A DNA stretch of 63,683 bases, filler included, from Anaerolineae bacterium (GTDB lineage: Bacteria; Chloroflexota; Anaerolineae; Epilineales; Epilineaceae), in NCBI GenBank assembly GCA_029262755.1. It is 6 parts of 6 records of this genome, joined end to end, with 100 filler letters (N's around TTAATTAATTAA, not from the genome) between each part and the next. Parts side by side here need not be neighbours in the genome. Positions count along the whole stretch, not along the records: positions 33,301 to 44,720 come from JAJCYU010000328.1; 5 more parts are not named here. One strand, given 5' to 3'. Below, piece by piece: positions 40,038-55,638 of this stretch; positions within the stretch are counted from its first letter, which is position 1; each line of letters begins with the position of its first letter. The notes under the pieces are model-generated. The model ran no database searches and had not been told where the DNA came from. It worked only from the letters and a program-made list of their open reading frames with translations. Position numbers and translations under genes: made by a program.

Positions 40038-40973
40038 CTACTCCGGCTCCGGCCCACCCTTGAGATAGGGCGCGATCGCCGCCGTGATCGCCGCCCATTC
40101 CGGAAGCGAGAGCGTCTGCGCGCGCCGCGCATGGTCGACGCTTGCGACGGCCAGGGCGTCCTCGATCTCGCCCGTAGTGCGGTCCAGCCCGTTCGCGAGG
40201 CTATTGCGAAGTTGCTTGCGCTTCTGGCCGAAGCCGGCGCGCACGACCCGGAAGAACTGCTCCGTGTCCTCGACGTCGACCGGCGGGACCGGGTGAACGT
40301 CTAGGCGCACGACCGCGGAATCGACACGCGGTCGCGGGTGGAAAGCTCCGGCAGGCACGACGGCGACGCGCGATGGACGCGCGTAGAACTGGGTGGCGAT
40401 GGAGAGAATGCTGTGCTCCCCTTCGCCGGTCATCATGCGATCCGCGACCTCGCGCTGGACCATCACGACGGCGCGCTCGGGGCGAATGCGCGCCTCGAAC
40501 ACGTGGCGCAGCACGGCCGACGTAATGTAGTAGGGAAGGTTCGCTACCACCTTGTAGCCGGGAACTACGCCTTCAGTCGGGGCGCCGGCGGGAAGAACTT
40601 CGGCCAGCAACGCGGCCAGATCTGTGCGCAGGACATCGCCGTCTACGATTCGTAGATGAGGACGGGAACCGAGTCGTTCGCGCACGATCGCCAGCATAAT
40701 GGGATCGATCTCTACGGCGACCACCTGTCCAGCGAGATCGGTCAGCACTTCGGTGAGCACGCCCAGACCGGGCCCGACCTCCAAGACCGTGTCCGACGGA
40801 CCGAGCTCCGCGGCCCTGACGATCCGCGCGAGGTAGGATCGATCGACCAAGAAATGCTGGCCGAGGCCCTTGCGCGGTCGGATCCCGTGGCGGCGCAGCA
40901 GCTCAGCCGGTCGTGGAATTCGCAGCTGCGCCGGATCGACGCCGTCCGGAAGGGGTGTCTGGTCTGCGCTCAT
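40038..40973 (-). CDS. rsmA: 16S rRNA dimethyladenosine transferase
   Basis: LGQHFL, LEVGPGLG, VANLPYYIT, MVQREVA, PRVDSAV, QKRKQL; ATGA overlap with the upstream gene. Confidence 0.96.
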   Translation of the reverse strand: MSADQTPLPDGVDPAQLRIPRPAELLRRHGIRPRKGLGQHFLVDRSYLARIVRAAELGPSDTVLEVGPGLGVLTEVLTDLAGQVVAVEIDPIMLAIVRERLGSRPHLRIVDGDVLRTDLAALLAEVLPAGAPTEGVVPGYKVVANLPYYITSAVLRHVFEARIRPERAVVMVQREVADRMMTGEGEHSILSIATQFYARPSRVAVVPAGAFHPRPRVDSAVVRLDVHPVPPVDVEDTEQFFRVVRAGFGQKRKQLRNSLANGLDRTTGEIEDALAVASVDHARRAQTLSLPEWAAITAAIAPYLKGGPEPE

Positions 40974-42658
40974 GGCAACAGCCAGCGAATCTCGCTCTCG
41001 GGGGGAAGCGGCTCGAGCAGGTAGAGGTCCACCCACTGTCGCCAACGCTTGTAGTTGTCGTCGTCGTAGCCCAGATCGATGTGGTAGCTGCGAATGCCGC
41101 CGCCGGTGTCTCCCGCGATGCCGACCCCGTAGCCCGGCACGAACAAGTTGGTGCGCATGGGGATAATCCGGGGGTCCACTGCCACGATGCCCTTGCGCAT
41201 CTCCCAGCCGAGGCGCGTGCGCCCATACCACGGCACCCAGGTGGGCGTGCCTGCCCGCGACGCGCTGTAGCTGGTCGCGAGCACCCGCAAGTGCCGCCAA
41301 TAGCGCTTTGGGCCTTCCGGAGTGTCGATGCTTCGCCACTCGATCTGGGTGCCGTAGGCGACCAGCTCGGCCTGGGGCTCGCTCAGCACAGACTCCTCGA
41401 CCAACTCGCGCTCAACCTCTTCGCCGTCCTCGTAGATGATACGGATGCGTTGGGTCTTGCTGCCGGCAACGCCGGGTCGGACAACCCGCGAATCGTCAAG
41501 CGCCATCGAGTGATCGGCCTCGGTTTCCGTTCGGAACGGAAGCGACACCTCACGCACGAGAAAGTCCTCGACCACGCGGACAACCTGAACGCCCATTCCC
41601 TCGCGTAAGCGAGTTGTGCCTGGTGGGATGGCGTAGTCCTTTCCCCGGAGCCGAACGCCGGCCTTCGCCAACGCCTCCGCCACCGTATCGGCGCGCGCTC
41701 GGGCCTGGCGCACTTCACCGTCCGCGTCGAGCTGGAACGAAGTGGCCCGATGGATGACCACGGTCCGCCGGCCTGCGAGCGGCGCGTCCAACGACGGGCG
41801 CACGACGTCTTCCGGCCAAAGATGCAGGCCGGCGGCACGCAGGGCGATCCCAACCGTAGGGCCGGCCAAGGCCAACGTGAGCGGGATCCCCTCTTCAACC
41901 ACGGTAACCGGAACAGCGCGAAGGACTTCGATGGTAGAAAGTGATTCGTCCAGGGTCGGCGCCGCAGCCAGAGCGGCGAGACGCCGTGCTTCCGAAACCG
42001 GGCCCTCCGCCGAAGGACCGGGAGCGTCCACAATCGGAACGCTCCGCACGTCGCCCGCGGCATCCGCGACGCGCCGACCTGCGCTGGGCGCTGATCGCGC
42101 GTCGCGGTCTGCGCTCGGCGCTGGAAGCTCATCGTCGAGGCCGACGATCGCACCGTCCACGACCACGACATCGCCCACACCGAGGGGGACATCCAAACTC
42201 GTCAAGATCGCGCGGGGTGTTTGCCCTTGGCTACGCAGTCGATGCGCAACGCCATCCGCGCGGACCCGCAAGGTGCGACCCTCTCGGATCCGGATCGTGC
42301 TCCCCTCCCGCAGACGCGTCTCAAGCGGCGGTGCGATCAGGTCCCCTGCCGATACGTCGATGGCATGCGAGACGAGAAACTGTCCGACCGAGCTGGCCCG
42401 GGTACGCATTGCGGTCACGCGCCCTGCCTGCTCGATGCGCACCTCGATGGTGCTCCAACGCTGCGCGTACACGACGGCGGCGATTGCCAGAGCACACAAG
42501 GGCCACGCCGCAAGGTCACGGGCGCTGGTGCTTCCGGTGCCGGCGCTGCGGGCGGGGGCTCGCCGCCCGCGTTGCTCGGAGCGGGGCACGGCCGTAGCGT
42601 CGGGCGCCCGCTCCGTGCGAGTCTCTCCCGAGGCGGATGCTGGGACGGGGACGGGCAT
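40970..42658 (-). CDS. YabE/RpfB-like protein: ubiquitin-like (DUF348) repeats, G5 and 3D domains
   Basis: N-terminal TM, TV..AL..AG repeats, G5 segment, ATSY...VAVDPRIIP...DTGGGI...IDL 3D motif; located upstream of rsmA as expected. Confidence 0.88.
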   Translation of the reverse strand: MPVPVPASASGETRTERAPDATAVPRSEQRGRRAPARSAGTGSTSARDLAAWPLCALAIAAVVYAQRWSTIEVRIEQAGRVTAMRTRASSVGQFLVSHAIDVSAGDLIAPPLETRLREGSTIRIREGRTLRVRADGVAHRLRSQGQTPRAILTSLDVPLGVGDVVVVDGAIVGLDDELPAPSADRDARSAPSAGRRVADAAGDVRSVPIVDAPGPSAEGPVSEARRLAALAAAPTLDESLSTIEVLRAVPVTVVEEGIPLTLALAGPTVGIALRAAGLHLWPEDVVRPSLDAPLAGRRTVVIHRATSFQLDADGEVRQARARADTVAEALAKAGVRLRGKDYAIPPGTTRLREGMGVQVVRVVEDFLVREVSLPFRTETEADHSMALDDSRVVRPGVAGSKTQRIRIIYEDGEEVERELVEESVLSEPQAELVAYGTQIEWRSIDTPEGPKRYWRHLRVLATSYSASRAGTPTWVPWYGRTRLGWEMRKGIVAVDPRIIPMRTNLFVPGYGVGIAGDTGGGIRSYHIDLGYDDDNYKRWRQWVDLYLLEPLPPESEIRWLLP

Positions 42659-42691: not shown

Positions 42692-42834
42692 CCATCATGC
42701 ACGGCGCAGGCTCGGCCAAGGCGCTCCTGCGGCACCCAAAGGGCACCCCTTAGCGCTGCTTCCTTCCGGACCTGACGCGATTCGGAGGCCTTCGCCGCGC
42801 AGGACCCTGACCGAGCCTGCGCCTTGCATGATGG
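42692..42834 (-). ncRNA. ffs: Signal recognition particle RNA
   Basis: Minus strand carries the conserved GTCAGGTCCGGAAGGAAGCAGC helix-8 motif; the ends pair in a long helix (CCATCATGCA...TGCATGATGG). Confidence 0.93.
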
Positions 42835-42879: not shown

Positions 42880-42900
42880 CGGTGCGCCGCCGCCACCTTA

Positions 42901-42947
42901 ACCTTAATGTCACCTTTATGCTTTGCTAACCGGCTTGCCGGTATACT
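42901..42947 (+). promoter_or_regulatory. Putative promoter (-10 TATACT) with 11-bp-spaced direct repeats over the -35 region
   Basis: TATACT at 42942-42947; TTAAT/TTTAT/CTAAC at 42904, 42915 and 42926; no canonical -35. Confidence 0.55.
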
Positions 42948-42953
42948 CGCCTC

Positions 42954-43080
42954 GTAGCACAAACACGCCAGCGGCTGTGTGGGGGTCTGCCACCAAATGT
43001 GGCGACGCGTTGAACGTGGGCGTGCTACTCGGGTCAGCGCTCATGGGCTGTGGTTGCGGGCGCTGACCCACTTTTGCTAA
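42954..43080 (+). ncRNA. Candidate structured small RNA (contains a 27-codon sORF, 42997-43080)
   Basis: Starts 7 nt after TATACT; GTAGCAC/GTGCTAC closing stem, GCCAC/GTGGC hairpin, 12-bp GGGTCAGCGCTC/GGGCGCTGACCC stem plus U-tract, then a strong terminator. Confidence 0.6.
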
Positions 43081-43082
43081 CC

Positions 43083-43120
43083 AACGGCCCGGCGCGAAAG
43101 CGCCGGGCCGTTTTCTCTTT
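43083..43120 (+). terminator. Intrinsic terminator
   Basis: AACGGCCCGGCGC-GAAA-GCGCCGGGCCGTT followed by TTCTCTTT. Confidence 0.85.
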
Positions 43121-55137: not shown

Positions 55138-55638
55138 CCCCTCGGGTAGGTTTCCCCGCTTCGACGGTACTATGCAGACGCTCTGACCACTGACGCCCGT
55201 CCCGCTCGCTCGGTCTCCCTCGCTACGCGGTACCGGCTCGTACGTCCTTGTTTCGCTCCCTTCGAGGGGGGACGCGCCCTCTCCGGGCCGGGCCTTGGTC
55301 GACCGGGCTTGCCCAACCGGTTGCTTTGAAGCCGGAGACGTCAGTGCCTCACGAGTTCCCTGGCAACCCTCTCATGCGTCTGCTCCGCTCGAGTGACCCC
55401 GCCGGGCTCTCCGCACATGGCACGCGTGCTTCGTTTCTGCTGCCGGACCTTCGCACGTCGACAGCGCACCGGATGGGTTGTTTCGAGGCTCGATGACGCA
55501 GCTTTCGCATTCCCTGTTTACGCTTCGCAGGCAGGGTCACCCCGTACCCACGCAAAACTCGGTTCCGGCGGTCGCCAACTTTGCCGGACGGGACTTGCAC
55601 CCGCAGGGCTGCGATGCAAGGTTTCCGCTCAATCGCTC
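55138..55638 (-). ncRNA. 5' part (domains I-III) of a group II intron, truncated
   Basis: Minus strand reads GAGCGATTGAGCGGAAACC...GGTGCAAGTCCC...GAGTTTTGCGTG...GCGAAGCGTAAACAG...GAGCCTCGAAA...CATAGTACCGTCGAAGCGGGGAAAC, all typical group II intron DI-DIII motifs. It is cut by the transposon end; no RT ORF or DV/DVI. Confidence 0.8.

Follow-up and report, generated by a model that had tools for sequence, protein, structure and literature searches.

The window analyzed here (the whole stretch of 63,683 nt, filler included) carries on its minus strand the SRP RNA gene ffs (42712..42811; RF00169, 70 bits), with a promoter at 42879-42851 located by promoter scan, and rpmB, encoding ribosomal protein L28 (43248..43487; TIGR00009). 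The gap between them, with ffs as its divergent neighbor and rpmB as its convergent one, almost certainly holds a conserved, structured RNA gene of roughly 120 bases on the plus strand. It was placed at 42954..43076 (~123 nt, both ends predicted) from the start of homology and from covariance model (CM) matches, and is referred to below as type A. It likely has its own -10 box and terminator, and is predicted to be transcribed. The -10 box, TATACT, is at 42942..42947 on the plus strand, where the original prediction had put it. Upstream of it are a direct-repeat regulator site of the TTAA-N7-RTAACC type with an 11-bp period (42898..42914, plus; -56 to -40 relative to the predicted start), which is kept in homologue promoters, and a second, weaker direct-repeat site across the -35 region (42915..42931, plus; 12.4 bits). 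The RNA itself begins with a long interrupted stem enclosing an inner hairpin (42954..43028, plus). The previously proposed pairing of GTAGCAC (42954-60) with GTGCTAC (43022-28) is there to the letter, as are the other sequence elements given with that prediction, and the stems covary among relatives. An intrinsic terminator hairpin and U run follow (43031..43076, plus), the 12-bp stem extending from 43031 to 43069 before a short U run, as had been described; its loop (43043-43055) is common to a subset of the RNA copies. A second, GAAA-loop hairpin of 13 bp (43083..43112) had also been called a terminator. It is indeed terminator-like, on the plus strand only, but is not conserved, being absent 3' of the homologues as judged by eye; it is likely a back-up or shared terminator facing the convergent rpmB. 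Downstream of ffs are a gene for a 3D/G5-type cell-wall protein and ksgA (40038-42658), an order kept in most loci of the family.

Homology begins exactly at 42954 in same-family relatives (BLAST, 41 genomes). A CM was built from 17 copies, omitting one copy with Ns. The homologue search suggested with the original prediction returned, by this model, 18 strong copies (64–130 bits) in 14 of 17 family genomes, four of them with two type A copies each, plus eight copies from metagenomes. Neither G004 (97% complete), where the next gene directly follows ffs, nor G006 (65% complete) has a match to the RNA, and G014 (87% complete) has only a second type of RNA (type B, described below). Among 146 sampled genomes from other families of the class, searched with stricter filters, there was no strong match and three weak ones (21–23 bits). 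An exact 20-letter pattern run against 185,579 GTDB genomes gave 15 stretches. Fourteen of these, scored by pattern only, are in Chloroflexota MAG records (Anaerolineae, Ardenticatenales, Caldilineae, UCB3, and Ca. Epilinea brevis), and one is from a Firmicute (15 bits). Firmicute pattern matches (L213, L230, L232) were rejected at 15–16 bits, appearing by eye to be coding, as were ten viral ones considered as phage copies (25 bits at most, and no promoter box in any). In metagenomes the pattern found 15 stretches, nine with copies above 45 bits; after three loci were dropped as repeats of known sequences, this set contributed six extra loci with the eight copies. The RNA is near ffs in 12 of 14 genomes. 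As judged from sequence matches in the genomes searched, the RNA family is confined to one family of uncultured Chloroflexota, the Epilineaceae, which the accessible part of PMC10746286 presents as a proposed family of three sludge MAGs.

The 5' structure put to the test is a manual drawing based on the copy in the window: a long interrupted stem with an 11-nt bulge on its 5' side and an inner hairpin, followed by the terminator. Folding energy is beyond chance for the 3' hairpins (z -4.06 for the terminator, -6.13 for the GAAA hairpin) and not for the 5' domain (z -0.70), with the whole RNA at z -1.50, so the structural case rests on comparison. With the MAFFT alignment left unfitted, 88.5% of cells are paired, and two-sided changes are found in 20 of 35 pairs, against 4–9 pairs when the structure was slid along the same alignment as a control. 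The model-fitted alignment of 25 distinct rows has them in 24 of the 35, and the eight metagenome copies, which were not model input, in 16. None of 500 shuffles did as well in any of the three cases; note however that kinship among copies inflates shuffle-type controls of this kind. Of the 24 pairs that vary on both sides, 16 are in helices 1–4 of the 5' stem; within the terminator, 8 of 11 pairs do so. RNAalifold, applied to the MAFFT alignment, recovered the terminator, with a 5' fold different from the drawn one.

The 5'-side bulge contains a G/U-rich 12-mer, CUGUGUGGGGGU (42975..42986, plus), which is the same in all 26 aligned copies, where mean column identity is 66%. The eight metagenome copies, one of them found by CM, came from a search pattern containing the motif, which leaves the 18 genome copies as the independent count. 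Bases 1–9 are mostly predicted to be unpaired and the last two to be paired, and the two base pairs flanking the bulge likewise never vary. This 12-base loop is likely a partner-binding surface, modeled below as most probably one for surface-protein mRNAs. The triplet CAU is confined to the terminator loop, where some of the copies have it. Neither the invariant loop, nor the upstream direct-repeat box with its regulon, nor the paralogues were part of the original prediction.

At the gathering threshold the RNA has no match in Rfam, a check the original prediction had named; the best sub-threshold match in Rfam 15 was to sX2 (25.8 vs. 40 bits), to hairpins only. ARAGORN and Rfam call neither tRNA nor tmRNA in the window, and there is no RF00013 match for the RNA, in agreement with the earlier exclusion of these classes and of 6S RNA. 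6S RNA is a rod of about 180 nt with a central bubble. A separate 6S-like locus was seen in the host genome, G000 (L306, C264:1101-1282, minus strand; 35.7 bits, below cut-off), with a site for the direct-repeat box ~90–110 nt upstream that is also 5' of a divergent RND exporter gene; family genome G004 has a 6S match above the cut-off. A CsrB/RsmZ-type decoy was rejected (no repeated GGA loops in the alignment, CsrA in none of five genomes), as were a bacterial Y RNA (Ro60/TROVE gene in none of five) and a split SRP Alu domain (no SRP-clan match, different fold). SRP RNA itself is of the short form in three of four family genomes tested and a partial large form in the fourth (95 bits), while four of four tested outside the family have the full large form (196–206 bits). 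The loci compared were the window copy (42712-42811) with L010, L012, L015, and L031 inside the family, and L018, L023, L029, and L034 outside it. The SRP Alu domain was likely lost in the same family that gained this RNA. No description of the RNA was found in the literature searched, subscription papers and preprint supplements being outside its reach, and the RNA may already be in some motif-discovery supplement; nor were papers on regulatory small RNAs of this lineage found there.

The type B RNAs have the same promoter, a similar terminator, and a U-rich inner loop. They were found in five genomes and one metagenome contig (L064:10028-10177, L066:16814-16957, L072:9321-9468, L092:1318-1466, L093:1556-1705, and L228:868-1011), with no Rfam match among the loci scanned. 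In two genomes they lie apart from ffs. G003 and L228 have tandem arrays of three RNAs with separate promoters. No type B copy was found by nhmmer in the host genome, which is 84% complete. Two large genes that by eye resemble SARP/BTAD-type regulators lie between the RNA copies in G005 and G012 (L067:6619-12899, L073:4729-10971).

The homologue promoters have no consensus -35 element. What they share is an AT-rich direct repeat, together with a -10-like hexamer, located by pattern, at matching spacing in 18 type A and 5 type B copies. The upstream box of the window copy scores 18.1 bits, against a background 99th percentile of 11.9, with a matrix made from 15 other sites in the host genome; the RNA promoter and that of the C301 operon (below) were left out of the training set. 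A strong upstream site is present in 15 of 23 RNA promoters, and six others have an inverted site beside or over the -10 element. In four of five promoters of the U-rich paralogues, the position of the second site scores 11–19 bits. The host genome has 12 occurrences of TTAA...RTAACC at period 11, compared to 0–3 at each of 11 other periods. The box lies within 300 nt of 17 genes, and spacers of 5, 6, 8, or 9 gave none. These genes are biased toward the cell envelope: 10 of the 17 look exported, compared to 828 of 3069 (27%; p 0.006), with gene starts (3419 genes called) and "exported" calls coming from simple in-house scripts. Pfam matches among box-adjacent genes include PBP1A (a bifunctional PBP), sortase, LysM, VWA, DUF11/SdrD, RND/HlyD, and GT4; unrelated divergent neighbors are also in the set. 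In the 1.6 Mb covered of G013, the box is found at three genes, including the sortase orthologue, and other spacers at none.

A family of giant DUF11 proteins is present in all 17 family genomes, and 16 of 23 of their leaders are in the top 1% for the box (one is a training locus, and the windows were 330 nt compared to 250 nt for the background). These putatively secreted proteins are multi-copy, with frames of about 2000–6000 aa and N-terminal regions without Pfam matches; the loci seen were L080 (G000:C57:291-340), L083 (G000:C296), and L182-L211, most with the box in the leader. The C57 leader has an array of overlapping box sites on both strands. The direct repeat resembles the cyanobacterial Pho box. 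A Pho regulon was considered, but there is no box before either pstS-like gene of the host genome, so it is not a Pho box. Control of the RNA through the box is considered very probable.

The host genome has 24 Trans_reg_C matches. Among their operons, one kinase-regulator pair (G000:C301; L257, 123-2061; relatives L289-L303) has the box in its own leader, by eye over a -10-like element. The regulator is single-copy in 16 of 17 genomes, at 72–88% identity, and the box in the leader of the C301-type operon is in the top 1% in 15 of 16, while none of 11 other regulator leaders exceeds the 95th percentile. A stricter regular expression finds the box in just 4 of the 16 C301-type leaders. The regulator fits no NCBIfam family (best RpaB, 196.8 vs. 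a cut-off of 330), and the kinase, of 390 aa, has HisKA and HATPase domains only. From these comparisons the C301 pair is probably the system that binds the box, and it could act as a master regulator of the cell envelope within the RNA's family. For Synechocystis RpaB, the accessible part of PMC6525291 describes activation from sites ~50 nt upstream and repression from sites near the start. By analogy, the site at -56 to -40 suggests that the RNA would be activated, and promoters with overlapping sites repressed, by the same regulator.

Our preferred reading is that an OmpR-family response regulator at -56 to -40 would activate the RNA and repress promoters where the same box overlaps the -10 element or the start, while the invariant G/U-rich bulge would pair with C/A-rich leaders of a few surface- or secreted-protein mRNAs and damp their translation. 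RNA and box together would then form a feed-forward loop lowering surface-protein output at two levels. For this model as a whole, from box to mRNA pairing, we estimate a probability of about 0.5. Complements of the 12-mer are the most leader-enriched 8-mers of the whole RNA, being the most concentrated at -50 to -6 of start codons (8.5–10%, compared to a base of 1.2% and 3–4% for composition-matched permutations). They peak at -30 to -21, just 5' of the Shine-Dalgarno (SD) sequence (30 vs. ~4 per bin), and the leaders that bear them lean toward exported proteins (34 of 82, vs. 27%). With three internal-start rows dropped, complements of at least 7 nt are found in 7 of 26 giant-protein leaders, compared to 72 of 1200 background leaders; the reversed motif reaches 2 of 26. 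The C296 leader of the host genome has a perfect 18-nt complement, ~145 nt upstream of the start and in part unpaired in the predicted fold, which may be either a target site or a degenerate antisense copy. The surrounding region (L083, G000:C296:7650-7720) folds into a stem in which part of the complement is bulged out, mirroring the RNA.

Several broader comparisons were negative. Shuffled motifs match as many leaders (82 vs. 74.6 ± 21.6; equaled or exceeded by 23 of 60 shuffles), and in the 17 family genomes a permuted control precedes GGAG more often than the complement does (288 vs. 215). The 570 ortholog pairs with G013, a two-genome test covering 1.6 of its 4.3 Mb, show no excess of common sites (26–90 of 100 shuffles as high), and by duplex energy the reversed motif does equally well on giant-protein leaders. 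No broad, conserved target set is apparent from these tests; a few lineage-specific mRNA targets are possible. Exact 10-mer complements in relatives are scattered, with no orthologous target in common. The C296 complement is absent from its nearest homologues, and its cofold gain (-14.7) is beaten by at least 1 of 120 random leaders (minimum -20.2). Hfq was not found in any of five genomes, of which four are 90% or more complete; KhpA/B is in all five. Pairing with SRP RNA (-13.4) or tRNAs (best -16.3) was rejected as weak, with at most 6 nt perfect.

In the first alternative the gene and its regulation would be the same, with the invariant bulge binding a protein, so that the RNA titrates or carries an RNA-binding protein and the U-rich paralogues bind the same or a related one. 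Strict invariance of the motif, without detectable conserved mRNA sites, would fit a protein site, as would the two unvarying pairs that flank the bulge, and RRM proteins are encoded in four of five genomes and KhpA/B in all five. RRM genes persist, however, in G004, which is without the RNA. CsrA, Ro60/TROVE, and Hfq were found in none of the five genomes tested, the RNA has no repeated motif as in Csr-type decoys, and no adjacent protein gene is common to all copies. On balance we regard this as possible, if on the unlikely side.

It is more doubtful that the bulge pairs with the host 16S rRNA, affecting assembly or activity of the small subunit under envelope signaling. The site would be the 3' strand of helix 12 and the bases following it, and the match is a good one: 11 contiguous pairs (10 Watson-Crick and one G-U; -23.2 kcal/mol), equaled by 2 of 500 permuted motifs. 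The 12-mer is the best of 38 sampled from the RNA, and pairing is better in just 4 of 3100 leaders. The site is present in all seven family genomes where the pattern found the stretch, and a single unchanging partner would explain the invariance of the 12-mer. But the match was found post hoc, after many candidate partners, and of the 10 matching genomes from other families, in which the RNA was not found, 7 have the site too, which indicates no co-evolution. The site is paired in the mature 30S subunit. The type B loops have no comparable rRNA match, and the duplex retains one G-U wobble, where perfect pairing would have been open to a dedicated guide. A fuller version, with a two-component-controlled sRNA that displaces helix 12 of 16S rRNA during assembly while its U-rich sisters, answering to the same envelope signal, hit other partners, would be slightly harder still to credit. 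If the 16S reading were true, the RNA would be a trans-acting rRNA guide or brake in bacteria, for which a limited literature search found no precedent.

That the locus is a cis element, either a leader or attenuator of the downstream gene or simply a terminator region between ffs and rpmB, is very improbable. There is a terminator at its end, and the next gene is on the same strand in 5 of 18 clusters; but in 12 it is convergent, which argues for a trans-acting RNA (one cluster is at a contig end), and on this distribution a riboswitch or cis-leader was rejected. In addition, neighbors vary, tandem copies have their own promoters, and the 5' domain covaries. The original proposal of an undescribed, self-contained, trans-acting sRNA is supported by these clusters together with the homologues, the conserved promoter, the covariation, and the missing Rfam match. 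Its other suggestion, a small-protein or dual-function gene for a 27-aa peptide, is close to refuted on conservation: the 27-codon ORF (42997..43080, plus) is there as an open frame with ATG and stop, but the ATG is in 2 of 26 copies, within the most indel-rich loop, and absent from the closest homologue (L233), and the alignment has non-triplet indels throughout with no common peptide, so the frame was judged incidental.

Under the preferred reading, of a box-controlled RNA pairing with a few surface-protein mRNAs, the RNA would work most like the streptococcal csRNAs and the RpaB–PsrR1 loop, yet it fails their defining sequence tests. OmrA/OmrB and Mcr7 are sRNAs activated by OmpR-family regulators that tune envelope or secretion genes, and OmrA and OmrB are tandem paralogues; they are a lead only, any sequence relation having been checked through the Rfam search alone. 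The csRNAs belong to the CiaRH regulon, in which a two-component regulator binds a direct repeat of 11-bp period, NTTAAG-N5-TTTAAG (PMC3091779). As far as the accessible part of that paper goes, the likeness extends to paralogous RNAs behind an 11-bp-period repeat, a conserved unpaired stretch, and a terminator hairpin, but the csRNA stretch is an anti-SD/anti-AUG sequence between two stem-loops, whereas here it is a G/U-rich bulge in one long stem. The csRNA box is given there as 10 bp before the -10 element, and the main box here lies further upstream by about one helical turn or more. The two boxes are thus analogous, differing in consensus and spacing, with no sequence or Rfam relation.

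GcvB is described, in the part of PMC3879156 available, as using a single-stranded seed to silence an ACA-containing enhancer just upstream of the SD. The present RNA has a comparable conserved G/U-rich seed, predicted to be accessible, with CCCCCACACAG as its complement. GcvB depends on Hfq, according to the portion of PMC4474525 available, whereas Hfq was not detected in the hosts of this RNA; the fold is also different, Rfam has no match, and no multi-target footprint was seen. The RpaB–PsrR1 system of Synechocystis likewise has a direct-repeat box regulator, an sRNA within its regulon, and dual control, but RpaB represses PsrR1, whereas the present RNA has an upstream site, and the targets differ (PMC6525291, accessible part). 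The WalR box of Firmicutes, given as TGTWAH-N5-TGTWAH in the available text of 10.1101/2022.04.01.486798, is near the present consensus on the other strand, and its regulon is likewise one of cell-wall and surface genes; the C301 regulator, however, scores 164.7 against the YycF cut-off of 340, and its kinase has just HisKA and HATPase domains.

The locus leads to a complete candidate circuit, made up of a kinase-regulator pair, a predicted binding site, and an envelope regulon with giant DUF11 proteins. It includes sister RNAs, which come in two loop types and have two layouts of the promoter, in hosts without detected Hfq. The mechanism would be unusual if the partner were rRNA or a protein. 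Among these bacteria are short filaments observed on other filaments in activated sludge, with an adhesion mechanism called unclear in the accessible part of PMC10746286.

Two minor observations concern other sequences. At 55386-55597 on the minus strand, the window has a match to group II intron domains D1–D4 (101.9 bits). Host genome contigs C29, C41, C233, C326, C423, C427, and C428 contain AT-rich stretches in a genome of 67% GC, and are possibly foreign DNA or misbinned.
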